DNA of 64,000 nt from Gemmatimonadales bacterium (GCA_024278175.1 JAJRTS010000006.1:41036-105035); one strand, 5' to 3'. Positions 26,660-54,572 are shown, counted from the first letter of the stretch. The notes: generated by a model from the letters alone, not told the origin. Made by a program: numbers and translations.

Positions 26660-26667
26660 TAAATATC

Positions 26668-30361: not shown

Positions 30362-33300
30362 TTAATTCCCCGGGGCTGGCGGCGGCGGCTGTTGCAGGCG
30401 GCGCAGAAGCCGCAGGTATTTATCCGCCTCCTCCGGCCGCCCCATCTTATCATAAGTGAGCGCCAGGTTATTGTAGGCGGTCGGCTGTAGCGGGTTGAGC
30501 TCGATTGAGCGCTTGTAGTATCTCACGCTCTGTTCGTAGTCTCCCCGGTTGGTCAGGATCACGCCCAGGTTCAGACACGCCAGCGGGTTGAACGGGTCTT
30601 TCTCCAGACTGAGGCGGTAGAGCCTCTCGGCCTCGTCGCGGTTGCCGCGCTTCAGCTCCAGGTTGCCGAGGTTGAAAATCGCCGAGCCGTAGTCCGGGCT
30701 GGCGCTGATCGCGCGGCGCAGCAGCTTCTCGGCGGCGGACAAGTCCCCGGCGCGGTAGCGCACCAGGCCCAGGTTCAGCATCGTCTGGGGGCTGGCCGGG
30801 TTAAGCTTGAGCGCCCTGCGGAAGTAGCGTTCGGCCTGGGTTTCCAGCCCCTGGTTGCTGGCGCAGACGCCGAGCTGGAACCAGCTCTGGGCGTGCTCGG
30901 GGATAATCCGGGTTACCTGGCCGAACCACTGCCGCGCGGTTTCCAGCTCCCCACGGGAGTAGTAATATTGACCGAGCTGGTAGCGCACCACGAAATCGCC
31001 GGGGTTTTGCCTGGCGATTGCCAGCAGCGAATCGGCGTCCGGGGCTGGCGGGTTCGCGAAATGACGGATGTAGTCGTCCGCCGGGTTACGGGCGAGCGCC
31101 CTGCGATAAAGGTTGATCGAGGCCGCCGGCTGCTGGAATACCCAAGCGGCGAACTTGCCCTCGTAGAAATCGATCCGCGGCTCGTACCAGTGATTTATCC
31201 TCTCCACGAGCGAGAGCATACTGTCGGCCGGGGCATCGCCTCCGTTCCACTGCGTGTAACCGGTAATCGGCTCCAGGTTGTCGATCATCCAGTGGTAGGT
31301 ATCCATCGGCACCGTGGGGGCCATCGTGCGGCTGAACTCGATCACCGGGCGGCTGTCGGTGTTGAGCGGGGCGTCAGCGGTGAGTTCCCGCAGCTTGCGC
31401 GGCCCCATCATGAACAGCGAGGCCAGCGAGAGCGGATTGTCCAGGAATACCTCGGCCAGATCGGCCCGCACTTTGGGCTGGCCAAGCAGCCGCCGCCAGC
31501 GCGGGTAGTCGATTACGGTTTCCTCGCTGGTGCCCAGCAGGATCACGTTGGCCGGGTTGCACCACCACAGGCTGCTGTTGGGGAAGACTTCCACGAAAGA
31601 GCGCAGCAGGCTCTTGAATTCTCTCAGGGTAAGCCCGTTGGTGGGCAGCCAGGCACAGACAGTGCCGCCGGGCTTGAGGGCGCGACGGCAGAGCTGGTAG
31701 AAATCCATCGTGTAGAGCATCGGACTCAGCTTGGGATGGATCGCGTTGAAGCTGATCACGTCGTACTCTTCATTGCTGGTCAGGATCAGGTTGCGCCCGT
31801 CGTTGAAGACGATTTTTACATTCGGGCTGTCGAGCACCCCGTGGTTCTCCGGCAGGAAAAACTCCGCTGTCGAGGCTTCCTCCGGCACCAGCTCCACGCA
31901 CTCGATCCTCGGCAGGTCGTAGCGGGTGGCGGTGTAGAGCGTGCTGCCGAAGCCGAAACCCACCACCAGCATACTCTTCGGGTCGGGGTGGAACAGGATC
32001 GGCAGGTGGGAGAGCAGCTTGTGGATCACGATATCGTCGAAACCGGTGTAGGCCGTGCTCTCGCCGTTGATATTCAGTTCCCTGTTCCCGTCGGTGTTGC
32101 GCAGCACGGCCACGCTGGCCTCGGTGGTCTCGTTGACGTAGATGATTTCCTTGCCCGTGTTCGGCAGGCTGAAGCGCATTATCGGACCCATCGAGCCGGA
32201 AGCCACTACCCAGACCAGCACGGCTCCCAGCACGGCGGGCCCCGCGATTGCCAGCCGCGCGCGCAGGGGGCCTGGGCCGCTTTCCAGTTTCAGCGCCCAC
32301 AGCGCCAGACCGGCGCCCAGCAGCGAGACAGCCACCAGCGAGCCGCTGATGCCCAGCAGGGGCAGCAGGAACATGCCCGCGGCCAGTGAACCGCCGATCG
32401 TGCCCACCGTGTTGGCCGCGTACAGCTTGCCTACCCCGCGCCCCAGCTCCTCACACCTGGAGATGAACAGCCGGTTGACCACCGGGAACGCCACGCCCAT
32501 CGCCAGCGTGGGGATTCCCAGCACCAGCAGGCAGAGCGAGAACTTGACCAGCGTAACCTGGTTCCAGCTGTTGGCCCCGAACCAGAGGTTGAGTTGCTGA
32601 TAGATCTCAGGCAGACGGCCGATCAGCGGCAGGCTGGCCAGCCCGGCTACCGCGATAACCCATTGCAGCGCGCCGAAAACGAGAAACAGCCTGCGGAATC
32701 TGTCGACCAGGGGAGTGACAGCCAGTGAGCCCAGCGCGATGCCGGTCAGAAAGCAGGTGAGGATGATCGTGAAGGCGTGGGTCGAGAGGCCGACGAAGTA
32801 GATCAGCGCCCGGGTCCAGAGCACCTGGTAGGCCATCGCGGCGAACCCGCTGATCGCGAATAACAGCGGTACCAGGTCGATAGAGCGCTTGGCATAGGCG
32901 GGGCTGTCCGCGCGCTTTTTCTTTTTTTCCACAGTGGTTTGTACGGGCGAGGCGGCCACCAGCACGACCAGGGCCAGTGCGGCGGCGATTAAGTTACCGC
33001 AGGCGGCGATTATCACGCTCACGGTTTCTCCGTAAAGCATGATCAGCCAGAAGCCGGTGGCCAGCGTGCCGATAACCGCGCCAGCCGTGTTGAGACCGTA
33101 GAGCGTACCGATCCGGGCGCCAAGCTCACCGCGCGAGCGCACCAGGTAGCGGCCCACCACGGGCAATGTTCCACCCATCAGCACGGTGGGCGCCAGCATG
33201 ATAGCCGCCCCGAGCAGGAGCCGGACCGAAAACAACAGGATCCCGCTGCTCATGCCCAGGCCGTGAAGGCTCGTGTAAACCCCATCGAGCACCGGCAGCA

Positions 33301-33577
33301 GGCCCAGGCTGATCGCAGCTCCGAGGACGGCGATACCAAGTTCGATCAGCACGTAAAGGCGCAACAGCTTGTCCGAGCGGTCGGCCAGCCGCCCGAACAG
33401 CCAGCTTCCCAGGGCCAGCCCGCCCATGAACACGGCCACCACCGTGCTGACCGCGTGGACCGTGTTGCCGAACACCAGGGCCAGTTTGCGCATCCATAAA
33501 ACCTCGAAAGCCAGACCGCTGGCGCCCGAGAACAGGAAACAGATGTAGAGCAGAACATTGATTCGCTGTCGATTCAT
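30362..33577 (-). CDS. fused MFS / spermidine-synthase-like membrane protein with C-terminal TPR repeats
   Basis: N-terminal 12-14 TM region, a central SpeE-like Rossmann domain (VVGFGFGSTLY...VELVPE...DVISFNAIHP), and a C-terminal TPR array. Start chosen at Met 33577 (MNRQRIN). Confidence 0.65.
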   Translation of the reverse strand: MNRQRINVLLYICFLFSGASGLAFEVLWMRKLALVFGNTVHAVSTVVAVFMGGLALGSWLFGRLADRSDKLLRLYVLIELGIAVLGAAISLGLLPVLDGVYTSLHGLGMSSGILLFSVRLLLGAAIMLAPTVLMGGTLPVVGRYLVRSRGELGARIGTLYGLNTAGAVIGTLATGFWLIMLYGETVSVIIAACGNLIAAALALVVLVAASPVQTTVEKKKKRADSPAYAKRSIDLVPLLFAISGFAAMAYQVLWTRALIYFVGLSTHAFTIILTCFLTGIALGSLAVTPLVDRFRRLFLVFGALQWVIAVAGLASLPLIGRLPEIYQQLNLWFGANSWNQVTLVKFSLCLLVLGIPTLAMGVAFPVVNRLFISRCEELGRGVGKLYAANTVGTIGGSLAAGMFLLPLLGISGSLVAVSLLGAGLALWALKLESGPGPLRARLAIAGPAVLGAVLVWVVASGSMGPIMRFSLPNTGKEIIYVNETTEASVAVLRNTDGNRELNINGESTAYTGFDDIVIHKLLSHLPILFHPDPKSMLVVGFGFGSTLYTATRYDLPRIECVELVPEEASTAEFFLPENHGVLDSPNVKIVFNDGRNLILTSNEEYDVISFNAIHPKLSPMLYTMDFYQLCRRALKPGGTVCAWLPTNGLTLREFKSLLRSFVEVFPNSSLWWCNPANVILLGTSEETVIDYPRWRRLLGQPKVRADLAEVFLDNPLSLASLFMMGPRKLRELTADAPLNTDSRPVIEFSRTMAPTVPMDTYHWMIDNLEPITGYTQWNGGDAPADSMLSLVERINHWYEPRIDFYEGKFAAWVFQQPAASINLYRRALARNPADDYIRHFANPPAPDADSLLAIARQNPGDFVVRYQLGQYYYSRGELETARQWFGQVTRIIPEHAQSWFQLGVCASNQGLETQAERYFRRALKLNPASPQTMLNLGLVRYRAGDLSAAEKLLRRAISASPDYGSAIFNLGNLELKRGNRDEAERLYRLSLEKDPFNPLACLNLGVILTNRGDYEQSVRYYKRSIELNPLQPTAYNNLALTYDKMGRPEEADKYLRLLRRLQQPPPPAPGN

Positions 33578-33844
33578 CCTTTTGACCTGTGAAAATTGTG
33601 CCGAGCGACGCAGGCAATTGCCGGGAAACAGATGGCCTACCGGCTCGAAACTAACAAATCGAACTGCAAATAACAAAATAAAATGGTATGCGCCCCACAC
33701 TGGCCGAGACTCGTGGTTGTTGTTAATATTGCAGAAATGCTTTAAAATTCGGTTGACATTCAAATATAAAAGAGTGGATAAATACTGGTTGTTCGGGTTG
33801 TGACCAGCCTGATTGCAGTATAACAGGAGTAATGTCAGCGATTA

Positions 33845-35737
33845 GTGTGGATCAGGCAGGCCGCGCTGGCTAGAAAACTCATCGGCGGTACTGAATTGTC
33901 AATGTTCGAAAACAGGAAAAAGAAAAAGAAAGGAACCTCCCGGGTATTGGCTCCGCCGTGGGAGAAAATGACACAGTCCGCGGAGGTCAATCTGGGGCCG
34001 GCCAGCAGGGTGGAGCTGGCCAAGGATATTTATACTATCCGTTCGACTGTCAACAATCCGGAATTGGTGCTCAATGAAAAATGGCAGATAATCGGCTACT
34101 CCAGCTCGTTTTTACCGCTCACGGGCAAGGTGACTGATCTGGCCCAGCGGCGAGCCTCGTTGAAGGAGTTTTTGACCGACGAGGATTTCGAGAAAATTCT
34201 CGATTACCAACGGGCGGTGGAGCGTCTGGAGCATTTGCCCTATAACGAGGGCGAACCGTGGGAATTGCGCTACGAGGGTCCGGAGTCGGTTGACAGGATC
34301 GGCGAAACGTGGCTTTGTTCCGCCGGGGAAGACGAGAGCGGGTGGGACATTCTCGGGCAGGGGGGGCGCCGCCGGCTGATCCATCGGGCCAACCTGGAAG
34401 ATTCACGTGACTGCTATGCGATGTACTATCAGGAGTTCGGCAGAGCCGACGAGGATATCCGCCTGGAGTACATTACCCGGACTTCGCCCACCAAGGAGCA
34501 CATCCTGGACGTTTCCGCGGTTATTTCCGGTTCTCCGGGCAGCGTGTCTCACTACCCTGACATCACGGGTTACTCGATCTGCACCGGCTCGGCCTGGAAC
34601 ACGGTGGGGCGCCTGCAGCGGATGTGCGTCGATATAGTTTCCCGCCCGGAAGTACTGAAACCGGCCGCCGCGTACAAGATCCAGATCGAACGCACCGGCG
34701 GCCGGCTGATCAGAAGGCTGACGGATTTGTCCAGTGGCGTGGAGTCCGAGCCGCTGCAAATGATCGATCCTCACGCGCTATACGACTTTACCAATCATGT
34801 GGGATTCACAACCTTTGCCGGCGACCTGGAGATATACGACATTAAACTTTTTACGCGCAAGAGCATGTTCAGCCTCGATCAGTTCAAGCTGACTTTCGAC
34901 ATGGACGTGCAGTTGCGCGACCCGAATCTGGCGGGCAGGGTGTTCAAGCTCAAGATCGGCCGCGATGTGCGGCAGAATATGTCGCTTACCAGGATGATGT
35001 TCGAGGACATCACCGAGCGGGTGAAAATCGAAAACGAGTTGAAACGCAGCCGTCAGCAACTGCGTGAACTGGCACTTCATCTGCAAATGGTACGGGAGCA
35101 GGAGCGGCGGATGATCGCCAGGGAAATTCACGACGAGCTGGGTCAGGATCTCACTGCCCTGCAACTGGATCTGCACGGGATGAAAAAACGGATGCCCGAT
35201 GACATGCCGCAGTTGCAGGCGAAAGCCGATTCGATGTTGCGCCTGATCGATGTTACCAACCGCTCCGTACAGAGGATATCAACCTACCTGCGCCCGGCGT
35301 TGCTGGACGATCTTGGCTTGACCGCGGCGATCGAATGGCAGTTGGAAGAATTTGCCGGACGGACCGGGATTAAATGCGAGCTTCAGATCGAAGCCGATGA
35401 GAGAGGGCTGGAGGATGAGCTCTCCACGGCTATTTTCAGGATATTCCAGGAAACCCTGACCAATATCGCCCGCCATGCCGAGGCAAAGCGCGCCTGGGTC
35501 AGCCTGGTGCGCCAGGGCGGCTGCCTGGTGCTGGAAGTGCGCGACAACGGCAGGGGGATCACCAGAGCGCAGATGGAGCATTCCCGTTCGTTCGGGGTGA
35601 TCGGTATGCGCGAGCGGCTCTATCCGTGGGGCGGGGAGGTTGATTTCCAGGGGGAGCAGGGTAAGGGAACCACCGTGAGGGTAAGCGTCAAGTTGCCCGA
35701 GGACGGAGAAGAAGATGATCAAGATTCTGATAGCTGA
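33845..35737 (+). CDS. cytoplasmic sensor histidine kinase (HisKA_3 + HATPase_c) with an uncharacterized ~400-aa N-terminal domain
   Basis: H-box REIHDELGQDLTALQL (NarX/DegS-type HisKA_3) and GHKL ATPase motifs (RDNGRGI, GVIGMRER). No TM helices. Start possibly Met 33902. Confidence 0.8.
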   Translation: MWIRQAALARKLIGGTELSMFENRKKKKKGTSRVLAPPWEKMTQSAEVNLGPASRVELAKDIYTIRSTVNNPELVLNEKWQIIGYSSSFLPLTGKVTDLAQRRASLKEFLTDEDFEKILDYQRAVERLEHLPYNEGEPWELRYEGPESVDRIGETWLCSAGEDESGWDILGQGGRRRLIHRANLEDSRDCYAMYYQEFGRADEDIRLEYITRTSPTKEHILDVSAVISGSPGSVSHYPDITGYSICTGSAWNTVGRLQRMCVDIVSRPEVLKPAAAYKIQIERTGGRLIRRLTDLSSGVESEPLQMIDPHALYDFTNHVGFTTFAGDLEIYDIKLFTRKSMFSLDQFKLTFDMDVQLRDPNLAGRVFKLKIGRDVRQNMSLTRMMFEDITERVKIENELKRSRQQLRELALHLQMVREQERRMIAREIHDELGQDLTALQLDLHGMKKRMPDDMPQLQAKADSMLRLIDVTNRSVQRISTYLRPALLDDLGLTAAIEWQLEEFAGRTGIKCELQIEADERGLEDELSTAIFRIFQETLTNIARHAEAKRAWVSLVRQGGCLVLEVRDNGRGITRAQMEHSRSFGVIGMRERLYPWGGEVDFQGEQGKGTTVRVSVKLPEDGEEDDQDSDS

Positions 35738-36347
35738 CGACCATCCGATAGTCCGTAAGGGTCTGCGGGAAATACTGACCGAGACCAATGACGTGTTCGA
35801 TGTCCACGAGGCGGAAAACGGCCCGGAGGTACTGGAATTAATGGAGGGCGGGCAGTACGACGTACTGGTGCTGGATATCTCGATGCCCGGCATCAGCGGC
35901 CTGGACGTGCTCAAACAGATTAAAAAGAAGAGCTGCTCGATTCCGATCCTGATTTTGAGCCGCCACCCGGAGCATCAGTACGCGGTGCGCTCGCTACGAG
36001 CGGGCGCCAGCGGATATCTTACCAAGGAAAGCGCACCGCAGGAGCTTTCCAGCGCTATCCGGAAACTGGCCCGGGGCGGTAAGTACGTCAGCGCCTCGAT
36101 GGCCGACCAGTTGCTTGATTACTTCAATGATGATTCCAGCAAAAGGCCCCACGAAAAGCTCTCCGACCGTGAGTTCCAGGTGATGCAGATGATCGCTTCC
36201 GGCAAAACCGTGGGTGAGATTGCCGAGGAGATGCTGCTGAGCGTGAACACGATCAGCACCTACCGGATGCGGGTACTGGAAAAAATGAACCTGGAGAACA
36301 ACGCGCAGATTATGTACTACGCTATGAATGAAGGACTTATCAGCTAA
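35715..36347 (+). CDS. NarL/LuxR-family response regulator
   Basis: REC domain (ADDH, D at VLDISMP, K) and a LuxR HTH (LSDREFQVMQMIASGKTVGEIA). Overlaps the HK stop by 23 nt. Confidence 0.9.
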   Translation: MIKILIADDHPIVRKGLREILTETNDVFDVHEAENGPEVLELMEGGQYDVLVLDISMPGISGLDVLKQIKKKSCSIPILILSRHPEHQYAVRSLRAGASGYLTKESAPQELSSAIRKLARGGKYVSASMADQLLDYFNDDSSKRPHEKLSDREFQVMQMIASGKTVGEIAEEMLLSVNTISTYRMRVLEKMNLENNAQIMYYAMNEGLIS

Positions 36348-36741: not shown

Positions 36742-37125
36742 GTGCAAATGAGAGTTGTAATCGCCGACGATTCTGAAATCATGCGGGAACATCTGGCGGG
36801 CGCCCTGTCCGGCCTTGAAGGTATCGAAATAGTCGGCAGCGCCGGCAGTGGTGCTCAGGCGCTCGAATCCATCAGAAAATTAAACCCTGACGTAGTGGTG
36901 CTTGACATCAGGATGCCGGGTGGCAGCGGGATCGAGGTCCTGGAGCGGATCAAGCAGGACGCCCGTTGTCCGGTGGTGATCATGTTCACCAACTATCCAT
37001 TTCCCCAATACCGCAAGAAATGCGAACAGGCGGGAGCGGATTTCTTTTTCGAAAAAACCAGCGAATCCCATCTGGTGATTGAAACCCTGGAATCACTGAC
37101 CAGCCGCTTTCGGGCAAGTGGATAA
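36742..37125 (+). CDS. stand-alone CheY-like receiver domain protein
   Basis: REC motifs (IADD, VVLDIRMPGGSG, and the K in FFEK). No output domain. Confidence 0.8.
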   Translation: MQMRVVIADDSEIMREHLAGALSGLEGIEIVGSAGSGAQALESIRKLNPDVVVLDIRMPGGSGIEVLERIKQDARCPVVIMFTNYPFPQYRKKCEQAGADFFFEKTSESHLVIETLESLTSRFRASG

Positions 37126-37407
37126 AGCTGTGGCGATAGCAGCGCCCGGGGCAGTTGGCACCGGTTGTTCCGCCGGCCGTCGCATAACATGAAATCTCCC
37201 GGCGGATAAGAGCCTCGATCGGCGAGAAAAAAACTCGGCACGAAAGGAGGATCGCGGGTTGCAACCACTGCGGGAAGACACACCACCTGGCGCGCTATGG
37301 CCTGTTGGCTATCACCGTGCTGAAAAAAAAAACGATGATAAGGAGGTGAGAGAACCAGCAGAAATCTGAATTGTCCGGTTCAACATCTTCACAATTCTGG
37401 AGGGTGT

Positions 37408-40400
37408 ATGTCCATGAATGGTAAAGCTTACAGCTTAAGAGCCGCACTGCTCGGCCTGACGCTGGCATTGCTGGCAGCCGGTTCGGCTTTCGCCCAGGCG
37501 CTTAACACGGCGAAACTCGAGGGCGTTGTCAGAGATGCCGACACCGGCCAGCCGCTGGCCGGGGTACAGGTCGTGGTCGAGGGGACCCGGCTCGGCAACG
37601 TAACCAACAACGATGGTTACTATTTCATTCTCAACGTGTCTCCAGGCCGGCGTGGCGTCACTTTCAGCTATACCGGTTACCAGAAAACCACGGTTGCCAA
37701 CCAGTTGTTGCTGGCGGGTCAGACTATGACAGTGGATTGCAATCTCAGCTCCACCGTGGTCCAGCTCGAAGGGATCGTGATCGAGGGACAAAACGACATC
37801 CTGATCCCCCGTGACAACACGGCTTCCAAGCAGCGCATCACCAGTGAGAAGCTGACCGGGGCGCCCGCCACCAGGCTGGAAGACCTGATGGTGCTCGAGG
37901 CCGGCGTATCGCTCGGCGGCGAGGGCGGCAAGGCCCGCGGCCTTCGTATCCGCGGCGGCCGTCTGGGCGAGGAGGCGATGGTGGTTGACGGCGTGACGGT
38001 GCGTAACTACACCGCCGACCCCTACCGCACCGGTACTTTCTGGGTTTACACTCAGGAAGAGGGTTCGCTGAGCGAGGACACCACGCCGCTGGAGTTCTCC
38101 ACGAGCGCGGTGGAAGAAGTCGATATTATCACAGGCGGTTTCCAGGCCGAGTACGGTAACGCCCAGAGCGGTATCGTCAATATCGTGACCAAGGAAGGCG
38201 GACCTGATCTCAGGGGTAACGCTCGCTGGACCACCGACGAGGCCAATCCCCGTACCTCCGACTATGGTTACAACCAGCTTACCACCAGCGTGGGCGGCCC
38301 GGTACCGTTGATCCCTCACCTGAACTTCCAACTTACCGGTGAGCTGCAGGGCGTGGAGGATATCAGTCCCACTCACGCCAGCGAGGGTTTCCGCGGAGTA
38401 AACCAGCAGTTTGTCGACCGCCTGAACTGGGCCGTGCGTAACGACCCGGTCTACGGAGATCCCAAGTGGTGGAACGATGCGGGCTACGACGAGCCCCGTC
38501 CCGCCTTTATCCTGAGCGAGATGGTTTCCGCCCGCGAGATCTGGGCCGGGCGGATGGGAGAGGACTTTTTCTCCGGCCATCCCTGGGTTTCGCAGGGAGT
38601 TTACTCTCCGCCCAACCCCGTGCGGATCCCGGATAACTGGCAGGACAGGAACCTGCTCAACGGCAAGCTGACCTATTCGCCGATCCGGGGCCTGAAATTC
38701 TTAATGAGCGAGAACTTCTCCCGCTACCAGCGTCAGTGGCCTTCGGAGTCGGACGCCTACTGGCGTCAGGGCTGGGTAACGCCCGACATGCTCGGCAAGC
38801 GCATGTGGTCCACGCTCAAGGGCGACATGATCGCCGGGCCCGACACGTTTGCCTACGTGCCGATCGGCCTGGGACGGCGCACGCGTACGGGCCAGTTCCT
38901 GGCCGGTGTCAACTGGGACTTCTACCAGAGCGCCGAGCGCAGCGCATCGCTGCAGTTCCGGTTCATGAACATGCGCGTACAGGATATCAACTCCTCGAAC
39001 ATCAAGGAGAACTGGCGGCGTGATCCTCAGTTCCTCACCTTCAACGTGCACGATCTGCCGTTCATGGTCGAGACGTTTCCGGGCAGGGATCACCTGAACA
39101 ATCCCGAGGACGCGGCCTGGTACTATACCGATGGTACCGGCGTGTGGAACCGGGATCATACCTACTGGACTCCGTTCGGCTATTCGACCAACTCGCAGCT
39201 CTACTATCTGAACTACCGTTACCTGCGCGAGGACCAGAACACGTTCAAGCTGGATATGGAGTTCCAGCTCGACCGCCACAACCGGATGAAATTCGGCTGG
39301 CAGGGCACGTTCTTCCAGAACAACCAGTTCCAGGTCCGCCAGCAGCCGCGAATCCTGGACAACGAGTTCGATTACCGTCCGAGACTGTTCGCCGCTTACA
39401 TTCAGAACCGTACCGACCTCGGCGATTTCGTGTTCGACTACGGCCTGCGCTGGGACCAGTTCCAGCCGCGTGACAACTGGGGCTTTCGCAACAACGACCA
39501 GTACGGCGAGCGTTACTTCCCCAAAGACCAGAGCGAGTTATCGCCGCGCTTCAACGTGGCCTTCCCGGTTACCGACAAGGCCCAGATGCGTTTCAGCTAC
39601 GGCGTTTTCACCCAACTGCCCAGCTTCACGTTCATCTTCAGCGGCAATAACCCCGGCGGTCTGGGGTACTCCAGGACTGATGCTTTCGAGGCCGGCCTGA
39701 GTTACCTGCTCTCCGATGAGACGGTGCTGGATTTTACGGGATTCTACCGCGATGCCGACGGCAACGTGTCCTCCGGCTCGTTCTTCCGTGATTATACCCA
39801 GGCCGTTACCGGCCGCTGGGTGCGCGGAATCCAGGGCGCCTTCACCAACAGCGACCGCGCTAACGTGAAGGGTTTCGACCTCACGCTGCGCAAGCGTTTC
39901 AGTAACCACTACTCGCTGAACCTGATCTACACCCTGCAGTTCTCGCGGACCACCGGTTCGAGCTACCAGGCGTCGACCAACGACGGACTGCGGCCCGCGC
40001 GCGAGGACAGGACCCATAAGCTGTCGGCGCACTTGAGCTACATGACCGACGAAGACGTTTTCGCCGGCACCTGGGCCAACAAGGTCTTCAAGAACGTAAG
40101 GGCCTACCTGTTGCCCAGCGTGATGAGCGGCAAGCCCACCGGTGTGTACGTGCCGTATACGGCTGCCAACGCAAGTCTCAACCGCATGCGCGGCCGCTGG
40201 GATTACAACGTCGATCTCAGGCTGAACAAGGAATTTGGCCTGTCCGGCAGAAAAAGGATCAGCTTGTTTGCGGAAGTTTACAACCTGACCAACCGCAAGC
40301 TGCCGCAGCCGTATCCTTCCGGATACACGTTCCAGGGTTATCGGTACGCAACCGGTGGAGTCGAGTACAAGTGGGACACCGCTCCCTCTGATGCAAAATA

Positions 40401-40554
40401 CCTGTTCGTTCGTGATTTCGACGGGGACGGCGTACTCACCATCGATGAAGCGGCCAGGGGCGCAATTGCCGACGCCTTTGCCAGGGCCACGGACAATTTC
40501 AGAGCATGGGGCCTGGCCCGTCAGATCAGAAGCGGTATCGAGTTCACCTTCTGA
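37408..40554 (+). CDS. TonB-dependent-receptor-like outer membrane protein (CarboxypepD_reg + plug + beta-barrel)
   Basis: Signal peptide, carboxypeptidase-regulatory-like domain (GVVRDADTGQPLAGVQVVVEG), plug region, long barrel, and C-terminal aromatic residue (EFTF). Confidence 0.7.
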   Translation: MSMNGKAYSLRAALLGLTLALLAAGSAFAQALNTAKLEGVVRDADTGQPLAGVQVVVEGTRLGNVTNNDGYYFILNVSPGRRGVTFSYTGYQKTTVANQLLLAGQTMTVDCNLSSTVVQLEGIVIEGQNDILIPRDNTASKQRITSEKLTGAPATRLEDLMVLEAGVSLGGEGGKARGLRIRGGRLGEEAMVVDGVTVRNYTADPYRTGTFWVYTQEEGSLSEDTTPLEFSTSAVEEVDIITGGFQAEYGNAQSGIVNIVTKEGGPDLRGNARWTTDEANPRTSDYGYNQLTTSVGGPVPLIPHLNFQLTGELQGVEDISPTHASEGFRGVNQQFVDRLNWAVRNDPVYGDPKWWNDAGYDEPRPAFILSEMVSAREIWAGRMGEDFFSGHPWVSQGVYSPPNPVRIPDNWQDRNLLNGKLTYSPIRGLKFLMSENFSRYQRQWPSESDAYWRQGWVTPDMLGKRMWSTLKGDMIAGPDTFAYVPIGLGRRTRTGQFLAGVNWDFYQSAERSASLQFRFMNMRVQDINSSNIKENWRRDPQFLTFNVHDLPFMVETFPGRDHLNNPEDAAWYYTDGTGVWNRDHTYWTPFGYSTNSQLYYLNYRYLREDQNTFKLDMEFQLDRHNRMKFGWQGTFFQNNQFQVRQQPRILDNEFDYRPRLFAAYIQNRTDLGDFVFDYGLRWDQFQPRDNWGFRNNDQYGERYFPKDQSELSPRFNVAFPVTDKAQMRFSYGVFTQLPSFTFIFSGNNPGGLGYSRTDAFEAGLSYLLSDETVLDFTGFYRDADGNVSSGSFFRDYTQAVTGRWVRGIQGAFTNSDRANVKGFDLTLRKRFSNHYSLNLIYTLQFSRTTGSSYQASTNDGLRPAREDRTHKLSAHLSYMTDEDVFAGTWANKVFKNVRAYLLPSVMSGKPTGVYVPYTAANASLNRMRGRWDYNVDLRLNKEFGLSGRKRISLFAEVYNLTNRKLPQPYPSGYTFQGYRYATGGVEYKWDTAPSDAKYLFVRDFDGDGVLTIDEAARGAIADAFARATDNFRAWGLARQIRSGIEFTF

Positions 40555-40612
40555 ACCCGGCTCGGTCAATTGTGCTACTGAACGTCAGTCTTGAATCGAC
40601 GGGAGAAAGATT

Positions 40613-43600
40613 ATGTTGAAAAACAGTAGAATACTTTTCACTCTGGCCACGATGGCCCTGGTGCTCTGCATGGCTGTGGACGGTTTCGCTCTGCAGACCC
40701 GGACCAGAAAATCCCAGGGTAATAATTTCGGCCTGGAGTTGAACCTCGGTGGCACCGTTTTAGCGGGGACCAGTGAATATCCCCGCGGGTCGGGGAACTC
40801 CATCCCTACTTTCGAGGGTGGCTGGGGGCACTTCCTGGCGGTAGCCAGGGACCTCGATGGCGACGGGTATGCTGAGGACACCCTCTATGGCCGCAGCCGT
40901 GGCCGTACCGTGGGTGGCCGCAGAGCGTCACTTGAAGCGATGGATCTTGTACTGGAAGGTTTCAATGCCGGCCATCGGATGGATCAGTGGATGGGCCGTG
41001 TGGAAAACAACGAGATCTGGAGCTCCCTTGACCCCGACAACCTCACGCGCTGGCCGGCCGAGTTCCGCGAAGGCCGTACGATGAGCGGCGCCCCGATCCT
41101 GTTTGGCCGCGAAACCATCGGCGCCATGCACTCGGACGCCTACAATCGCAGCTATCACGGATCGGTACCGCCTACAGGCGTTTCGCTTGAATACCAGTTC
41201 TATTTCCTCGATTTCGGTGAAAGCAACGATCTGGCTTTCGGCCATCTGTTTATCCGCAACATGAGCGAATACCTGAAATACAACGATAACCAGAGTTTCA
41301 GGGACCAGGTTGCCGCAACTCCCGATGGGCAGGTCTGGGACAGCTTCGCGCTGATGTATGTCGAAAACTACTTCGGTATCGGTTTCAGCACGACCGGGAT
41401 GGATGAAGGCTGGGCTTTCCATCCGGCTCGCGTGATCAAGTGCATGGTCGATCAGGACGGGCTGGAAGACGGTTTCACCAACGGCGGCATGGCTTTCATT
41501 ATCGGTTACACGCCGCTGAAGAATATGGAGTTCAAGGGCGAGACCGCCTACCTGTCCAACACCACCAACTTCCGCTGGAGCGCTGATTTCGGTATCTCGA
41601 AGGCGCTGGACATGGGTACGCGCTCCGATCCCGGGCATACCTTTCGCTGGGCTACCTGCTTGCAGCCGGATGGGACAGAAAGGGACATCTCCGACTTCTA
41701 CGGCGATGAGATCAGCCCCTACACCGGCCGCGCCCTTACCGGCAACCCCGGTGTGATCGTGCCCTCCGATTCCCGTTACAACCAATGGCTGTGGGGCCGC
41801 CAGGCCCGGATCAATTACCATGCCTGGAGCGGACTGCACCAGTTCGGTCCCCGCGATACCACCACCACCGATTTCGCGATCATGGCGGCTTATCCCACTA
41901 ATCCTCCGCTGGTGATGAAGCCCAACGATATCGCCAATATCGACGATCCCGACATCCAGGTCCAGCTCGCTCCTCTGGAGCGGATGCAGGACGTTGCAAA
42001 GATCGTTTACAAGGGCGGATATATTCTGCCTCAGACACCTGTGCCGCCCCCGCTGACTATCGTGCCGGGTGACAGAGAGGTGACGATTACCTGGAGCAAC
42101 GTTAACCTGAACACCCCGGATGAATACTATTATTTCATCCAGGATAATCCCGAAGTCGATCCCGAAGGCGTATACCGGGAGTACGATTTCGAGGGATATC
42201 GTCTTTATCGCAACTATGTGGGACCGAGCGACGCCCATTCCGAATTGATTTATGAATCCAGTCTGGGCGCGGGTGATCTTGCATTCCACTACGTGGACAC
42301 AAGGGACAAGGACGACCCGTACTACAGGATGCGTAACGGGCTAAAGATCTGGTACGCTCTCGTACCTTACGACCTGAACTACGATCCGGCCACGGGGGAC
42401 GAACTCAGCCTGCCTGATCCCGGGCAGTCGAAGGTTTGGAACCGCACGTTCCCGGAAGGTTACTACACGGTTCGGCCGCGCAGCGATGCAAGCAACTTCA
42501 AGCCTGCCGAAGTCGCCTCGATAACCTATCTGCCGAGCGCGGGAGAAGCGATCCAGGTAACTGAGGTGGCGCTGGCCGGTTCCGAGGGTATGATCACCGA
42601 GACCCCGAAGTTTCTCGAGCCTTATACCGACATTGCCGTCGAGGTCGTAAACAGTGAAAGGATAACCTCGGATCAGACGGTTTACCTCGCTGTTACGGGG
42701 ATGGGGCCTCATGGTGGTCTGGCCGGTAGCAGGACCGTGGTCCTGCAAGACGCCGGTGGCACCCTGGTCGATCCGTTCAAACAGAGCATTATGGTCAACG
42801 GCCGCGGCAGGGACTACAATAAAAGTCTTGCCTATTCCGCCGGTATGAGTGGTGACGGTATTTCATACTCGGTCAACATGTCGATCAGCCAGCAGACTAT
42901 TCGGAACATGCAGACCCAGATGGACCTGGGTGGTTACGGTGGTGATGTCTCTTTTGCCACTTACCGCTGGGGTGAAGGCTCGGGCGGACTTGTCTACAAC
43001 AGCGGTGGCTCAAATGCCGCCTACACCAGGGCCGGTGAGTTCAAGGTTACCTGGAGCGCCTCCGGCGGCGGCCTGACCTGTACGGTTCAGGACCTGACCC
43101 ACGGCAAGGCGATCCCCTTCAGCCCGTATATCGATGATGAGAACTGGGGATTCATCGTCGGTGGCGCTACGTATGCGGATATTACCGGAGACGCGGGCCG
43201 TGAATGGGGCGGCCCCAGCAACGTGCTGGTTCCGCAGAGTGAACGCAGCATCATGCTGGCCGAGACAGTCCCTGCCAATAATACGGAGGACTTCTACCTC
43301 TACGTTAACGGGCAGGCCTGGAAGTTCACCAATCTCAGCGCGATGCCGGCCTCCGGCACCGTTATGACGGTGATTACGGCATACGGCAGCTGGAACGGCG
43401 ACGGTACGGCTTTTACCCAGACACCGGAACCGATCTTTCCCGGTGACAAATGGCAAGTCATCATCAAGGCGATGAGTATGAGCACCGATGATATTGACCT
43501 GTCAAAAATCAGGGTCGTGCCGAATCCATACATCGCCAGTTCGATGCTCGATCAGTCCGGCGGCAGCCGCAGGATCGATTTCGTCAACCTGCCGGGCCGC

Positions 43601-43876
43601 TGCACGATCAGGATTTATTCTCTGGGCGGAAATCTGGTCAATGTGCTCAATCACATCGGTTCAGGCCGGACCGGTTGGGGTAACTATACCGACCTGGACA
43701 ACATCCAGCCGGATAACACTCCGCTGGAGTTCACGGGCTACGATAACCACGGCGGCACCGAACCCTGGAACGTGAAAAACCGTTTCGGACAGACTGTAGC
43801 CAGCGGGTTGTATTTCTACCATGTGACGGACGAGCGGGGAGAAACGCACACGGGTAAGTTCTACATCGTCAACTGA
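40613..43876 (+). CDS. large secreted protein of unknown function with a T9SS C-terminal sorting domain
   Basis: Signal peptide. The last ~80 aa (IRVVPNPYI...CTIRIYSLGGNLVNVL...ASGLYFYHVTDERGETHTGKFYIVN) match Por_Secre_tail / type-A CTD architecture. Confidence 0.65.
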   Translation: MLKNSRILFTLATMALVLCMAVDGFALQTRTRKSQGNNFGLELNLGGTVLAGTSEYPRGSGNSIPTFEGGWGHFLAVARDLDGDGYAEDTLYGRSRGRTVGGRRASLEAMDLVLEGFNAGHRMDQWMGRVENNEIWSSLDPDNLTRWPAEFREGRTMSGAPILFGRETIGAMHSDAYNRSYHGSVPPTGVSLEYQFYFLDFGESNDLAFGHLFIRNMSEYLKYNDNQSFRDQVAATPDGQVWDSFALMYVENYFGIGFSTTGMDEGWAFHPARVIKCMVDQDGLEDGFTNGGMAFIIGYTPLKNMEFKGETAYLSNTTNFRWSADFGISKALDMGTRSDPGHTFRWATCLQPDGTERDISDFYGDEISPYTGRALTGNPGVIVPSDSRYNQWLWGRQARINYHAWSGLHQFGPRDTTTTDFAIMAAYPTNPPLVMKPNDIANIDDPDIQVQLAPLERMQDVAKIVYKGGYILPQTPVPPPLTIVPGDREVTITWSNVNLNTPDEYYYFIQDNPEVDPEGVYREYDFEGYRLYRNYVGPSDAHSELIYESSLGAGDLAFHYVDTRDKDDPYYRMRNGLKIWYALVPYDLNYDPATGDELSLPDPGQSKVWNRTFPEGYYTVRPRSDASNFKPAEVASITYLPSAGEAIQVTEVALAGSEGMITETPKFLEPYTDIAVEVVNSERITSDQTVYLAVTGMGPHGGLAGSRTVVLQDAGGTLVDPFKQSIMVNGRGRDYNKSLAYSAGMSGDGISYSVNMSISQQTIRNMQTQMDLGGYGGDVSFATYRWGEGSGGLVYNSGGSNAAYTRAGEFKVTWSASGGGLTCTVQDLTHGKAIPFSPYIDDENWGFIVGGATYADITGDAGREWGGPSNVLVPQSERSIMLAETVPANNTEDFYLYVNGQAWKFTNLSAMPASGTVMTVITAYGSWNGDGTAFTQTPEPIFPGDKWQVIIKAMSMSTDDIDLSKIRVVPNPYIASSMLDQSGGSRRIDFVNLPGRCTIRIYSLGGNLVNVLNHIGSGRTGWGNYTDLDNIQPDNTPLEFTGYDNHGGTEPWNVKNRFGQTVASGLYFYHVTDERGETHTGKFYIVN

Positions 43877-43944
43877 TGAGGACGCGGTGTGAGCAGCTTA
43901 CTTAGCAAGCGTTCTTCCCATTCAAGAGTATATGGAGGTTAGTT

Positions 43945-45156
43945 ATGTTGAGAAAGATGGCATTAAGAGCCATAACGACCGCTGGCGTACTCCTCGCGTT
44001 CGTCGCCTTGCCCCTGCTAGGACAGGGTATCGAGCGTAAGGAATACAACGGTCTGGACAAATATCCCACACAGGGACGCCCGGGCGCCAGCAGCTCCGTG
44101 GGCGTTCGTGCGGCGGAGTTCCTGACCATCCCGGTGGGTGCCCGCGGTATCGGCATGGGCGGCGCCAGTTCGGCGGTGCTTGACGATATTTCCGCGATCT
44201 GGTGGAATCCGGCCGGACTGGGACTGCTCGAGCAGAGCGAAGTGATGTTGACGGTTGTGGACTACACGATGAACCTGTCCTACAGCTATGCCGCATTCGC
44301 CACGCCGATTGCCGATAACGTAATGACCATCGGTGTGTTCGCCGGCTATCTGGACATTCCGGATGAGGAAATCACAACCATCACCAGTCCCAACGGCACA
44401 GGGCAGTACTACAACGCCTACGATTTCCAGATGGGCGCCAGTTTCGCCTACAACCTCTCGGACCGCTTCACGGCCGGGATCAACGTGAAGTACATCCATC
44501 AGGATTTCTTCCAGAACCTTGCCGCCAACGCATTAGGAATCGATGCCGGAGCGATCTATCACACCGAGCTGGCTGACCGTGAAATCCGTTTCGCCTTCAC
44601 GGTCCAGAACCTCGGTACCAACCTCACCATGAGGGGTGAGAACCTGCGGGTCAATGTCGGGCCCGAGCGGCTCAATGGCGGAGTGCCCGACGGTTACGGC
44701 GACTACTCCACTGATCCGTTCGCCCTGGCCACGCGTAATACCCGTGAAGCCTTCCGCGCGACCAACACCTACCGCCTGCCCACCACGGTGAAAATCGCGC
44801 TGGCCTACAACCTCTACACCAGCGAGTCAGCCAACTGGCTGGCCAGCGCGGAGCTCTGGCGCAACAGCAACATCCCGATCAGCTACGCGGTTGGTTCGGA
44901 AGTGAATTATAACTTCACTCCCTTCCTCTCCGGCGCTGTCAGGATGGGCTGGTTGATCCAGACCGATGAGTTCACCGACAGTGCCGACCAACTGGGTTAC
45001 GCCTATCTGGGTGATAATCCCACCTGGCGCGGACTGAGCTTCGGCGGCGGACTCAAGCAGATTTTCGGCAGCAAGGCAGTCAGCTTCAACTACGCCTATC
45101 AGAACAAGGGCCGCCTTTCAGCCGATAACTTCTTCAGTCTGCAGTTTGGATTCTAA
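43945..45156 (+). CDS. PorV/PorQ-family outer membrane protein (T9SS-associated)
   Basis: Signal peptide, the hallmark AAEFLTIPVGARGIGMGGASSAVLDDISAIWWNPAGLG region, and a beta-barrel ending in an aromatic residue (LQFGF). Confidence 0.65.
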   Translation: MLRKMALRAITTAGVLLAFVALPLLGQGIERKEYNGLDKYPTQGRPGASSSVGVRAAEFLTIPVGARGIGMGGASSAVLDDISAIWWNPAGLGLLEQSEVMLTVVDYTMNLSYSYAAFATPIADNVMTIGVFAGYLDIPDEEITTITSPNGTGQYYNAYDFQMGASFAYNLSDRFTAGINVKYIHQDFFQNLAANALGIDAGAIYHTELADREIRFAFTVQNLGTNLTMRGENLRVNVGPERLNGGVPDGYGDYSTDPFALATRNTREAFRATNTYRLPTTVKIALAYNLYTSESANWLASAELWRNSNIPISYAVGSEVNYNFTPFLSGAVRMGWLIQTDEFTDSADQLGYAYLGDNPTWRGLSFGGGLKQIFGSKAVSFNYAYQNKGRLSADNFFSLQFGF

Positions 45157-45254
45157 CGCCTTGGAGGGCGCCCGAAGAAGTTAGCAAAAAAGAGCCGGCC
45201 GCGGAATTCCGCGGCCGGCTTTCTATTATCGCCTTGGATTATTTAAACTCTGCG

Positions 45255-46289
45255 TTATGTGGAAAGCTCCACCTCGCGATGAGCTTTCGCGGCACGGTAG
45301 ATCGTTTCGATCAGCAGCCCGGTCCTGCGGGCTTCCTCGCCGCTGACCGCCGGATCGCGGCCCTCGCGCACCGCCGAGCAGAAATCCTCGATAATCGCTT
45401 CGTGCCCGCTGGTGTCGGTTACCGCCACGCCGCCGGCTCCGGCTCCGCTATGGATCGTCTCGGCGCTCTCCACCTCCGGCCGCTGTACCCCCTCGACGTC
45501 CCAGGCCACTATCTCGTCGTTGACAGTCAGCACGGAGCCGCGCTCGGCGTGAATCTCCAGGCGCACCGGGTAGCCGGGGGCGGTCACCGTGCTGGCCACT
45601 ATCGTGCCGATCATCCCCCCGGCCCAGGTAAGGATCGCCGCGCCGTGGTCCTCCACCTCGATCCCGGTATGGGCCAGCACCCCGGTGGCCGCCTGCACCC
45701 TGGCGGGCAGACCGAAAAACCAGGTGAGCGTGTCCACGTTGTGGCTGGCCTGCTGGATGAACGGCCCGCCGCCATCGACTTCCAGTGTGCCGCGCCAGGG
45801 TGCGCTGTCGTAGTAGTCCTGGCCGCGAAGGAATTTCACGCTCAGGTCGGCGCAATAGAGCTTGCCCAGTGCGCCGTTGTCGAGCAGCTTTTTCATCGCG
45901 ATATTGGCCGGACTCATCCGCCGCTGGAACGCCACGCCCAGCCGAAGGTTGGCCTTGCGGCAGGCGGCGATCATCTCGTCCATCTTCGCGATTGTCACAT
46001 CCAGCGGTTTTTCGGTGAGTACGTGCTTGCCCAGCGCGGCCGCCGCCAGCGTGTCGCGGCAATGCAGACCGTTGGGAGTTGCCAGCATCACGGCGTCGTA
46101 GTCCGTCTCTATCGTATCCAGACTGCCGCCGCTCTCGCCCAGCGAGTGCTCGGCCGCGTAGGCGGCCGCCCGGCCGGTGTCGCGGCTAACCACGCCCACA
46201 ATCTTTGCCCCGGCCACCTTGGCCGTGGCGTTCACGTAAGTTCCCGCGATATTACCTGTCCCTACCAGCACGAATCTGACTGGTTGCAT
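45255..46289 (-). CDS. Gfo/Idh/MocA family oxidoreductase
   Basis: Rossmann VLVGTGNIAG, E-K-P motif (LTEKPL), and a C-terminal domain. Confidence 0.8.
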   Translation of the reverse strand: MQPVRFVLVGTGNIAGTYVNATAKVAGAKIVGVVSRDTGRAAAYAAEHSLGESGGSLDTIETDYDAVMLATPNGLHCRDTLAAAALGKHVLTEKPLDVTIAKMDEMIAACRKANLRLGVAFQRRMSPANIAMKKLLDNGALGKLYCADLSVKFLRGQDYYDSAPWRGTLEVDGGGPFIQQASHNVDTLTWFFGLPARVQAATGVLAHTGIEVEDHGAAILTWAGGMIGTIVASTVTAPGYPVRLEIHAERGSVLTVNDEIVAWDVEGVQRPEVESAETIHSGAGAGGVAVTDTSGHEAIIEDFCSAVREGRDPAVSGEEARRTGLLIETIYRAAKAHREVELST

Positions 46290-46339
46290 TTACCACGCTC
46301 CTTCATAATTATAAACTGGATTAACTCTCGATTTTCAGC

Positions 46340-47200
46340 TCACGCCAGCCTGACCCACTCTTTTTCCGCCGCCTTTATCGCGTCAATCGTGTAGCGCACG
46401 TCCAGCCGGGGCTGGTCGGTGTACTTGGGGAACATCCCCACCACCACGGCGTCGCCCGGCTTGATCCTGGCGAACGCCCAGCGGAACGCTGCGGCCGCTT
46501 CCTCCTGCGATCCTGCCTTGCGGCCGCAACCGAGAATCTTGTAGGCCAGGCACATCCTGCCGGTCTGCTGGATAAAGCGGCAGATGCGTTCCGGGTCGTC
46601 GGGGTGGAACTCCTCCTGCTCGAACTTTCCGCTTACAACCGCGCTCTGGCGGGGTTTGCGGGCCACGTTGTAGAACGGAGTCATGTAGAAATCAATGTCC
46701 CAGCCGGCGTTCTCCACGTAGTCGAAAATCTGGGGGATATGGGCGGCCAGGCCCACCTGAACCCCGTTGTCGCGGATGGTTTTCAGGTAGTCCCGCACGT
46801 CGTCGATTCGCCCCTCGCGCCAGTACTTGTCGGTTTCGGTGCCGTGGAAATAGATCCCCTGCGCGCCGAACGCGGCGATCATTTTGATATTGTGGTGAAT
46901 GTCGTGCATCTCGCTGGCGGTCTGGGCGATAAACTGGATATCCTCACCCCGGCGGTGCAACAGCTCCAGGTAGTGCAGGATCCGATGGTAGTCGCCCCGG
47001 CCCTGGAACGTGTCTATCCCGGCGCGCTTGCAGGCAATCAGCGTGTCGACAATCCGCTCGGCGGAGAAATAGCTCTCCATGTCCCTGTTCATCGGCTCGC
47101 TGAAATGGCTGTTCCAGACAAACGGGTTGCCGCCCACAATCAGGCGGGTCACCCTGTGCGCTCCGAAAGGCACCGTGGGCAGTGCGTATTTATCGCTCAT
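46340..47200 (-). CDS. hypothetical protein
   Basis: A GGAGG RBS lies 9 nt upstream of the Met at 47200. No family recognised from sequence. Confidence 0.5.
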   Translation of the reverse strand: MSDKYALPTVPFGAHRVTRLIVGGNPFVWNSHFSEPMNRDMESYFSAERIVDTLIACKRAGIDTFQGRGDYHRILHYLELLHRRGEDIQFIAQTASEMHDIHHNIKMIAAFGAQGIYFHGTETDKYWREGRIDDVRDYLKTIRDNGVQVGLAAHIPQIFDYVENAGWDIDFYMTPFYNVARKPRQSAVVSGKFEQEEFHPDDPERICRFIQQTGRMCLAYKILGCGRKAGSQEEAAAAFRWAFARIKPGDAVVVGMFPKYTDQPRLDVRYTIDAIKAAEKEWVRLA

Positions 47201-53715: not shown

Positions 53716-54390
53716 CTATTTCAGTTCCTTGACCGCAATCTTGCGAAACAACACCTTGCTGCCCTTGCGCCAGTTCTCGCCCGGGTGGACCTGGATCGCT
53801 ATCGCACCGCTGCGGGGTACCACCGGGGTGCCGTCCTCTTGAAGCGCGCCCTGGTAGTCGTTGATTTTCTCCCCGTTGAGCCAGACCTGGATTCTCGGCG
53901 GCTGGCTCTCGATCCGGATCCTCATCGCGTTATAGTCGAACGGGTCCCAGAGGCTGAAACCGCGGTAGCAGTGCTGGGCAAAACCGCCGCCACGAGGGAT
54001 GTAGACCGCGCCGATCTCGCCCTCGGGACGGTGATCGATCGTGATCTGGTAGGAGAGCACGTCGGGCTGCACGCGAAGGAACAGGCCGGAGTCTTGGGGA
54101 TAAGTGGTTTTCACCTCGGCGTAAACCTCGAAATCGCTGTACATTTTCTCGGTGGCCAGCAGGCCGCCCTCACCCTTGGGCCACTGGTCACCGGCAATAG
54201 CCCCGTCGATTACCTCCCACTGGCCGTGGTCGTTGTAGCTGGTCAGCTTGGCCCAGCCATCGAGTGACTTCCCGTCGAATATGTCCACGAAACCGCTGAG
54301 GTCGGTTTCCTGCCCGGCGGCCCGCGAGCTTTGTGCGACAAAGAGTCCGAGTGCCAGGGCCATTGCTACGAGGATCGATGGAATACGCAT
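53716..54390 (-). CDS. DUF1080 (3-keto-disaccharide hydrolase-like, LamG-type jelly-roll) protein, secreted
   Basis: Signal peptide, FDGKSLDGW, and the C-terminal FRKIAVKEL motif typical of DUF1080. Confidence 0.7.
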   Translation of the reverse strand: MRIPSILVAMALALGLFVAQSSRAAGQETDLSGFVDIFDGKSLDGWAKLTSYNDHGQWEVIDGAIAGDQWPKGEGGLLATEKMYSDFEVYAEVKTTYPQDSGLFLRVQPDVLSYQITIDHRPEGEIGAVYIPRGGGFAQHCYRGFSLWDPFDYNAMRIRIESQPPRIQVWLNGEKINDYQGALQEDGTPVVPRSGAIAIQVHPGENWRKGSKVLFRKIAVKELK

Positions 54391-54572
54391 TATTCAAGGT
54401 CTCCCGTGTTGGAATGAGAGTGTAAAATAGTGGCGAATGAGTTATATTGCTGCTATGATAGTTGATGATCAACCGATGTGCAAGATAAAGTACAACGCGC
54501 CTTTCCCCGGTTCATTCCTTCGCTGGAGTCTGGCCGGTTAATCCAGACTGAATTCAATCCAGGAGCCGAAAA

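Follow-up and report, generated by a model that had tools for sequence, protein, structure and literature searches.

PorU and PorZ are the two type IX secretion system (T9SS) proteins whose C-terminal domains (CTDs) stay uncleaved, bound to PorV and PorQ, respectively, and it has been proposed in a review that cognate PorV-like barrels shield CTDs from cleavage (PMC10202324). In SusC/SusD of the Bacteroidota polysaccharide utilization loci (PULs) and in BtuB-BtuG, a TonB-dependent receptor (TBDR) with an N-terminal extension is encoded next to a surface protein; these systems exist in many paralogous copies, often have their own sensor or regulator and have carbohydrate-related genes nearby. 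Gemmatimonadota, including Candidatus Glassbacteria, are mostly uncultured, and we know of no use of SusD-type lipoproteins there. Here we report on a three-gene locus (the triad) in a 64,000-nucleotide stretch of DNA from a Gemmatimonadales bacterium (GCA_024278175.1 JAJRTS010000006.1:41036-105035; hereafter the window), which shares features with both kinds of system. With moderate confidence, we interpret the triad as a PUL-like outer-membrane uptake module with a barrel-anchored capture protein. The components are all of known kinds, and in the literature we found no description of their combination as a cassette of TBDR, CTD protein and PorV-like barrel, nor of PorV paralog expansions; the triad system is not described in the literature found on T9SS and TonB in Glassbacteria or on T9SS in Gemmatimonadota. 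The triad consists of the following genes:

37408-40554, + strand: gene 1, TBDR, 1048 aa
40613-43876, + strand: gene 2, the cargo, 1087 aa
43945-45156, + strand: gene 3, a PorV/PorQ-family 14-stranded outer-membrane barrel, 403 aa

The three genes are co-directional with spacers of 58 and 68 bp, and a GGAGG or GGGAGA Shine-Dalgarno site lies 6-8 nt 5' of the ATG of each; the spacers and good ribosome-binding sites had been reported in a preliminary description of this locus. All three proteins begin with a signal-peptide-like segment. To the cargo there are 94 close homologs of about 1080 aa, the named ones from metagenome-assembled genomes (MAGs) of Candidatus Glassbacteria or Gemmatimonadota, several per genome. 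A scan of one genome per species yielded 50 loci, nearly all in Glassbacteria MAGs, and the order TBDR, cargo, PorV-like barrel is kept in all 50 wherever flanking DNA exists, so the arrangement is not due to chance; the triad is conserved as a unit, and the earlier view of a barrel dedicated to the adjacent CTD protein is upheld. At least 11 triads are present in the genome DATKXY, 9 or more in CAYLSM and 6 or more in MFIX01. Because one genome holds at least 11 copies, gene 3 is not the housekeeping porV, which the preliminary description had also maintained; in the barrel homolog search, saturated by paralogs at 62% identity or more, a housekeeping PorV was not distinguishable. Paralogs within a genome share 41-67% identity in the cargo and are thus old.

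A profile of the cargo gave 3961 matches at E<=1e-3 and 1375 at E<=1e-10 among 1.84 billion cluster representatives. Many of these remote relatives are 950-1350 aa long and match most strongly over the FN3-like and C-terminal part, and an alignment shows that they have the motifs of the cargo head too. The cargo proteins examined contain no Pfam domain, and every source name given is "hypothetical protein". Homologous partner genes were present in all six remote contexts examined (L052-L057), with the order sometimes permuted, and the third genes all match the hidden Markov model (HMM) of the PorV-like barrel (E from 1e-42 to 1e-101). The gene orders are:

L052: barrel, cargo (5.9-kb contig; the upstream open reading frame (ORF) of 318 aa is cut, so that the TBDR is not assessable)
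L053: cargo, barrel, TBDR
L054: TBDR, cargo, barrel, GWxTD protein
L055: TBDR, cargo, barrel
L056: TBDR, cargo, barrel, GWxTD protein
L057: TBDR, cargo, barrel (flanked by Por_Secre_tail and FlgD_ig proteins)

Judged from these matches, remote homologous triads occur in other Gemmatimonadota. Some of the relatives form a branch with cargo of about 1300 aa (about 1250-1330 aa), whose sole named member is from a Gemmatimonadetes MAG.

The cargo has no Pfam domain, whether searched as the whole protein or as two N-terminal pieces, just a sub-threshold FG-GAP repeat, and its profile has no match in a sequence search of the PDB; no catalytic domain had been recognized in the preliminary description either. 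The Gly/Asp/Tyr richness mentioned there is real and modest (11.1/7.1/5.4% vs 8.6/6.0/2.8% in the other proteins of the window). No conserved lipobox cysteine is found in the family consensus. An AlphaFold2 (AF2) model with a pLDDT of 80.9 comprises an alpha+beta head, an FN3-like region, an all-beta region and a poorly modeled CTD. The regions are listed below with their mean pairwise identity across 31 complete triads, which also underlie the divergence correlations given further on:

40613-40699, + strand: signal peptide region of Sec type, aa 1-29, A-x-A-like at its end
40700-42022, + strand: head, aa 30-470, alpha+beta, AF2 pLDDT ~90; 39% identity
42050-42502, + strand: FN3-like stalk region, aa 480-630, strongly conserved; 64% identity
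42503-43492, + strand: all-beta middle region, aa 631-960, ~21 strands, freest to vary; 39% identity
43493-43876, + strand: CTD, aa 961-1087 plus stop codon, T9SS CTD-like; 75% identity, the highest in the triad

The corresponding values are 66.5% for the PorV-like barrel and 58% for the TBDR. The TBDR diverges in step with the cargo head (r = 0.79) and with the barrel (r = 0.71), whereas the divergence of the cargo middle is uncoupled from the partner proteins and from the other cargo regions (r = 0.09-0.48).

The CTD had been called a clear type-A sorting domain, which is an overstatement: the native tail reaches 18.3 bits with TIGR04183 (threshold 23) and 15.0 bits with PF18962 (threshold 27). 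What keeps it under the TIGR04183 threshold is a conserved stretch of about 31 inserted residues (aa ~1018-1049), whose deletion in silico raises the two scores to 23.4 and 18.5 bits; the type B model TIGR04131 gives 13.1 bits (threshold 35), solely after removal of the insertion. The best match of the tail is the CTD portion of the PorZ model (26.6-32.7 bits), which covers aa 987-1087 of the cargo only. Moreover, natural CTDs taken across the superfamily match the PorZ CTD in seven of seven cases (best E = 1.9e-12), TIGR04183 in four of seven (best E = 3.4e-7) and the PorU CTD in four of seven, and the CTD family profile searched against the PDB hits the PorU CTD best (6za2, aa 1083-1144; E = 0.0033), with PorZ as the next, weak match. 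This likeness to the PorZ and PorU CTDs supports retention of the CTD, and a mere cleavable signal is made less likely by its conservation, the highest of any region. Where type A CTDs form a compact Ig-like beta-sandwich of 7 strands, AF2 places about eight strands in aa 967-1085, with pLDDT <50 at 971-986 and 1015-1060. An HMM of the family CTD run on 919 kb of fetched DNA detected only triad cargo, bar one ORF of 346 aa that adjoins a cargo gene in L053. The latter locus has three extra genes without Pfam match (749, 795 and 346 aa; 4109-9886) 5' of the cargo gene; the 346-aa product carries the family CTD (HMM E = 5e-43), and one barrel may serve two CTD proteins there.

Gene 3 contains GARGIGMGGA at aa 65 and WNPAGL at aa 87, the motif region by which it had been placed in the PorV/PorQ family, and this placement is corroborated by NF033709 (PorV_fam) at 138.8 bits (cutoff 90), with aa 55-403 aligned to positions 2-326 of the 326 in the model. 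The protein is below the equivalog cutoffs for PorV (NF033710, 55.6 vs 250 bits), PorQ (NF033711, 81.4 vs 220 bits) and PorV2 (NF052325, 72.9 vs 325 bits). A phmmer comparison with Flavobacterium PorV (6h3i_F) gave E = 2e-9. Its AF2 model (pLDDT 70.9) shows 14 long strands. Foldseek ranks PorV of the substrate-bound translocon first (8gl6_F; E = 3.7e-14, TM 0.58/0.63), followed by 6h3i_F; FadL, TodX and BamG (chains 9hjm_F, E = 4.5e-9, and 9n2d_B) rank below PorV.

In the TBDR, the CarboxypepD_reg, Plug (40.2 bits; threshold 23.9) and TonB_dep_Rec_b-barrel (47.4 bits; threshold 27) domains are all above the Pfam thresholds, in agreement with the earlier label "TonB-dependent-receptor-like" for gene 1. 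A signal peptide leads into a CarboxypepD_reg-like N-terminal extension (aa 37-125), after which come the plug at aa 135-255 and a large barrel; a TonB-box-like LEGIVIEG, spotted by eye, lies between the extension and the plug. With the family profile (15 members), matches were obtained to the plug and the first strands of the barrel in Cir, PfeA and FepA (E ~1e-17) as well as to an isolated N-terminal extension of a SusC homolog (9hfj); a full-length SusC chain is absent among its PDB matches. With TIGR04056 (SusC/RagA) the TBDR scores 53.9 bits vs a cutoff of 368.25, over model positions 2-206 only, and such a match limited to the N-terminus is found in 14 of the 15 triad TBDRs. The earlier epithet "SusC-like" is hence apt for the N-terminal extension and the plug and not for family membership. 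By these profile matches, gene 1 is a true TBDR with a SusC-style N-terminal extension, outside the SusC family.

Each of the described systems resembles the triad in part. Like PorQ-PorZ and PorV-PorU of Porphyromonas gingivalis, the triad would pair a 14-strand PorV/PorQ-family barrel with a surface protein whose uncleaved CTD is bound to it; among CTD models, those of PorZ and PorU fit its CTDs most closely, and the best equivalog of its barrel is PorQ (81 bits). Unlike in those pairs, the barrel fails all three equivalog cutoffs, genomes carry many copies instead of a single one, a TBDR invariably accompanies the pair, and the cargo lacks PorZ/PorU features outside the CTD, a role in attachment of anionic lipopolysaccharide (A-LPS) not being implied. 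In SprB-SprF of Flavobacterium johnsoniae (type B CTD with a PorP/SprF barrel), a dedicated PorV-like barrel gene likewise adjoins the gene of a large surface protein (PMC10202324), whereas the triad has a type A-like CTD, a barrel of the PorV/PorQ family and coupling of the pair to a TBDR. The features listed above for SusC/SusD and BtuB-BtuG, namely many paralogous copies, a TBDR with an N-terminal extension beside a surface protein, frequent sensors or regulators and carbohydrate-related genes nearby, all recur in the triad. In contrast to SusC/SusD, the triad TBDR fails TIGR04056, a SusD-like TPR lipoprotein is absent, the partner being a beta-rich Sec protein of 1087 aa without lipobox or SusD Pfam match, a third gene (the barrel) is obligatory, and the operon is mostly devoid of carbohydrate-active enzymes (CAZymes). 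Oar-type TBDRs with CarboxypepD_reg occur in Myxococcus, Acidobacteriota and Gemmatimonadota, and we know of no association of theirs with a PorV-like barrel or a CTD protein; they share with gene 1 the order CarboxypepD_reg, plug, large barrel, a likeness of architecture. Finally, in BamG-BamH of the Bacteroidota beta-barrel assembly machinery (BAM), an extracellular protein is held by the loops of a FadL/PorV-like barrel of 14 strands (PMC12578637), as it would be by the triad barrel; unlike that system, the triad has no BamA context, is multi-copy and has a partner with a CTD, and PorV ranks well above BamG as a structural match.

A TonB-dependent uptake unit is preferred over a secretion accessory because the TBDR is strictly linked to the other two genes and co-diverges with the cargo head, and because many copies have a separate sensor or regulator upstream and sugar-related neighbors; that it borrows T9SS-type anchoring is suggested by a CTD most like the retained ones of PorZ and PorU. 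The constant CTD, barrel and FN3-like region, the variable head and middle, the co-divergence of TBDR and head, the copy number, the regulators and the sugar-related neighbors all fit PUL-like uptake. We envisage that the 1087-aa cargo is exported by Sec and presumably carried over the outer membrane by a T9SS, and that its CTD then remains uncleaved and docks on the dedicated PorV/PorQ-family barrel, as PorZ does on PorQ and PorU on PorV. The barrel would anchor the cargo at the cell surface beside the TBDR, perhaps in one physical complex, with the FN3-like stalk and the CTD as a constant scaffold. The variable head and middle would serve to capture one specific substrate, for which a glycan is the likeliest candidate, and might also process it; the TBDR would then import it. 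The kinase, the LuxR-type regulator and the stand-alone receiver encoded upstream would turn the operon on in response to the substrate, and each genome would maintain many copies that diverged long ago, probably with a different substrate for each and often with a regulator of their own.

Several observations weigh against this interpretation. A CAZyme is missing from the operon in most triads, unlike in classical PULs; the unmodified CTD does not pass TIGR04183 or PF18962 and is predicted by AF2 with low confidence; the length of the CTD insertion correlates just loosely with that of a barrel loop (n = 7). No T9SS core gene was found in the 64-kb window or in any fetched flank (~0.9 Mb), a sample too small to establish absence, and the first 51 fetched loci lack an ORF of the size of SprA. 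One paper goes no further than to state that the T9SS "may be present" in Gemmatimonadetes (PMC11285876).

The preliminary description had likened the triad to a cargo-specific T9SS shuttle or attachment system, in which the PorV paralog just ferries or attaches the cargo, secretion is the purpose, and the TBDR is co-regulated and mechanistically separate. The dedicated PorV/PorQ-family barrel of this proposal stands, the cargo tail is CTD-like, and cognate barrels encoded beside their cargo have a precedent in SprF/PorP with type B CTDs (PMC10202324). However, the weight of evidence is on the side of an uptake unit: the TBDR is never missing, even in remote permuted triads, its divergence follows that of the cargo head, and a transient secretion signal is not expected to be the most conserved part of a protein, so that we hold a mere shuttle to be unlikely. 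If secretion were instead independent of the T9SS, the CarboxypepD_reg-type TBDR might itself export the cargo, or barrel and TBDR might form an autonomous surface-display device in which the CTD/PorV-like pair is an anchor only. Myxococcus Oar, whose domain architecture is the same, reportedly exports the protease PopC, the family CTD type is exclusive to triads, and the absence of T9SS core genes from the DNA at hand would be accounted for; that sampling is far too small to show that the genomes lack a T9SS, though, and there is no structural precedent for a folded, beta-rich protein of 1087 aa passing through a 22-strand barrel with a plug. That other proteins of these lineages (P0087; L057) bear ordinary Por_Secre_tail or FlgD_ig tails suggests, moreover, a general T9SS, and independence from it seems to us quite improbable.

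We give a similarly low probability to the idea that the cargo is a variable surface coat or adhesin, for attachment (cell-cell or cell-surface) or phage evasion, displayed on PorV-like anchors, with a diversity that is antigenic or adhesive and not related to nutrients. Two hypervariable regions on a constant scaffold, one of which (the middle) diverges independently, would suit such a coat, and surface coats are commonly built by the T9SS (PMC10202324); yet it would be left unexplained why the TBDR is obligatory, why the regulators (ROK, Reg_prop/Y_Y_Y kinase) are of a substrate type and why sugar-related enzymes lie nearby, and the paralogs are old and stably maintained, with no signs of recombination cassettes seen. 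Least probable of all, and hardly to be expected, is that the 403-aa barrel serves as a FadL-type channel for a hydrophobic compound of which the cargo is the extracellular binder or solubilizer. The best Pfam match of the barrel N-terminus is indeed Toluene_X/FadL (26.1 bits, sub-threshold), and FadL and TodX come next after PorV structurally, but the PorV family model passes its threshold where the FadL model fails, PorV is top by both sequence and structure, and a FadL substrate would not need a TBDR. These four explanations are weaker than an uptake module mainly because none of them explains the obligatory, co-diverging TBDR together with the regulators.

If the triad is indeed an uptake module, it could, as a more tentative proposal that we put forward with some reserve, represent a third TonB-dependent "utilisome" architecture besides those of SusCD and BtuBG with their lipoprotein lids: a PorV-family barrel would permanently hold the capture protein beside the transporter via an uncleaved PorZ/PorU-type CTD, and the cassette would have been amplified in Glassbacteria and other Gemmatimonadota into a substrate-specific repertoire of uptake machines. 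We consider it improbable that such a cassette works without any T9SS. Were the proposal true, T9SS-type docking of a CTD on a barrel would be a general principle of surface anchoring reused outside secretion, the role of PorV-family barrels would widen from secretion shuttles to permanent anchors of uptake machinery, and there would be natural evidence for the published proposal of CTD protection by cognate PorV-like barrels. As a Gemmatimonadota equivalent of PULs, the cassette would also offer a sequence signature for predicting substrate repertoires, namely a TBDR accompanied by a family-CTD protein and a PorV-like barrel of 403 aa.

The features around the triad in the window are as follows:

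33845-35737, + strand: sensor histidine kinase, 630 aa, with HisKA_3 and HATPase_c at aa 420-618 (Pfam, NCBIfam)
35715-36347, + strand: LuxR/NarL-type response regulator, 210 aa, overlapping the kinase gene (Response_reg 110.9 bits, GerE 62.2 bits)
36742-37125, + strand: stand-alone receiver protein, 127 aa, 283 bp 5' of the TBDR gene (Response_reg 83.5 bits)
37126-37407, + strand: 5' leader of the triad, with Shine-Dalgarno-like AAAGGAGG at 37243-37250 and AAGGAGGT at 37340-37347
45193-45220, no strand: GC-rich palindrome with a perfect 12-bp stem, between an A6 run and a T-rich run
45255-46289, - strand: GFO/IDH/MocA oxidoreductase gene, convergent with the triad (Pfam 96, 69 and 67 bits)

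The palindrome is likely, from its sequence, a bidirectional terminator that closes both the triad and the convergent oxidoreductase gene. An ORF at 45234-46394 (+ strand) was considered as a fourth gene and dropped, being the shadow of the gene on the - strand; its counterparts in L004 and L035 are probably shadows of the GFO/IDH/MocA gene there. As a hairpin follows gene 3 and the next + strand ORF is a shadow, the operon consists of exactly three genes.

The kinase, whose N-terminal ~400 aa have no family match in Pfam or NCBIfam, is likely the sensor for the locus. Homologous kinases are found 5' of the triads in L012, L015, L019, L021, L025 and L028, orthologs of the response regulator (59-74% identical) in L019 and L028, and similar short receivers 140-800 bp 5' of the TBDR in L008, L014, L015, L019, L028 and L032, with one of 142 aa in L001. 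More broadly, two-component or sigma-54 regulators lie upstream of the triad on the same strand in 21 loci and ROK regulators in 6, and L001 has upstream a Reg_prop/Y_Y_Y sensor kinase like the hybrid sensors of PULs. A strict sigma-54 promoter consensus was seen upstream of the TBDR genes in 0 of 40 cases. Downstream of the triads are GFO/IDH/MocA oxidoreductases with a twin-arginine translocation (TAT) signal in five loci including the window, AXE1/S15-like esterases in four, Pel9A-like beta-helix proteins in three and TPR proteins in five.

The leader of the TBDR gene also shows a recurrent pattern. An AAGGAGG motif lies 60-170 nt 5' of the TBDR start in 64% of 36 loci, vs 3.5% of random segments, and in 10 of 35 loci an ATG with a mini-ORF of 1-4 codons comes after a leader AAAGGAGG(T) motif (shuffle mean 0.84), for example GGAGGCAGGCCTATGTAA in L014. 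In the window the motif occurs twice without a mini-ORF, and an upstream ORF of 36 codons starting with TTG is possible. The leader motif may be part of a translational leader or attenuator; Rfam gave no credible match on 33-46 kb of the window.

The cargo head is also found as a stand-alone module, in P0088 and P0091, which consist of head, dockerin and FlgD_ig. In L058 (10001-22433), an 810-aa protein of this composition adjoins a PQQ-propeller-dockerin protein, and two cohesin-rich, scaffoldin-like proteins are also nearby; from its domain content, L058 appears to encode a cohesin-dockerin system of cellulosome-like kind, in an organism related to this lineage. An extracellular role of the head fits with its fusion to dockerin and FlgD_ig beside cohesin scaffoldins.

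Among the related loci, a GWxTD-domain gene lies 3' of the triad in L054 (15282-16679), where a further protein of 1011 aa comes next, and in L056 (14948-16294). The GWxTD protein may be a fourth component in the branch with cargo of ~1250-1330 aa; our literature search found no paper that mentions GWxTD. In the MAG CAVVYO (MFD03899.bin.2.138; L031, L034, L048 and L051), frameshifts split the triad genes into several ORFs, which reflects either assembly indel errors or real pseudogenization. Among the MAGs with the 94 close cargo homologs, one is labeled "archaeon" and one just "bacterium". The "archaeon" MAG SMAG_U14205 (the DATKXY contigs; L004, L006, L008 and others) carries at least 11 bacterial outer-membrane triads, and a "Deltaproteobacteria" bin carries one triad (L010); these two labels probably stem from wrong taxonomy or faulty binning in the public records.

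Elsewhere in the window, two tandem GH20-like genes (744 aa each), a 3-keto-disaccharide hydrolase gene and at least three GFO/IDH/MocA genes are present (53716-59101, 13104-14114, 21597-23018 and 45255-46289), which suggests that the genome has an oxidative (3-keto) route of glycoside degradation. At 30362-33763 (- strand), a protein of 1133 aa is encoded that combines a membrane region like that of the major facilitator superfamily (MFS), a spermine/spermidine synthase-like domain and C-terminal TPR repeats; homologs of 1075-1133 aa lie 5' of the triad on the opposite strand in four loci including the window. The GC content dips to 0.49-0.50 at 26001-28000 and 60001-62000 of the window, compared with ~0.60 elsewhere.

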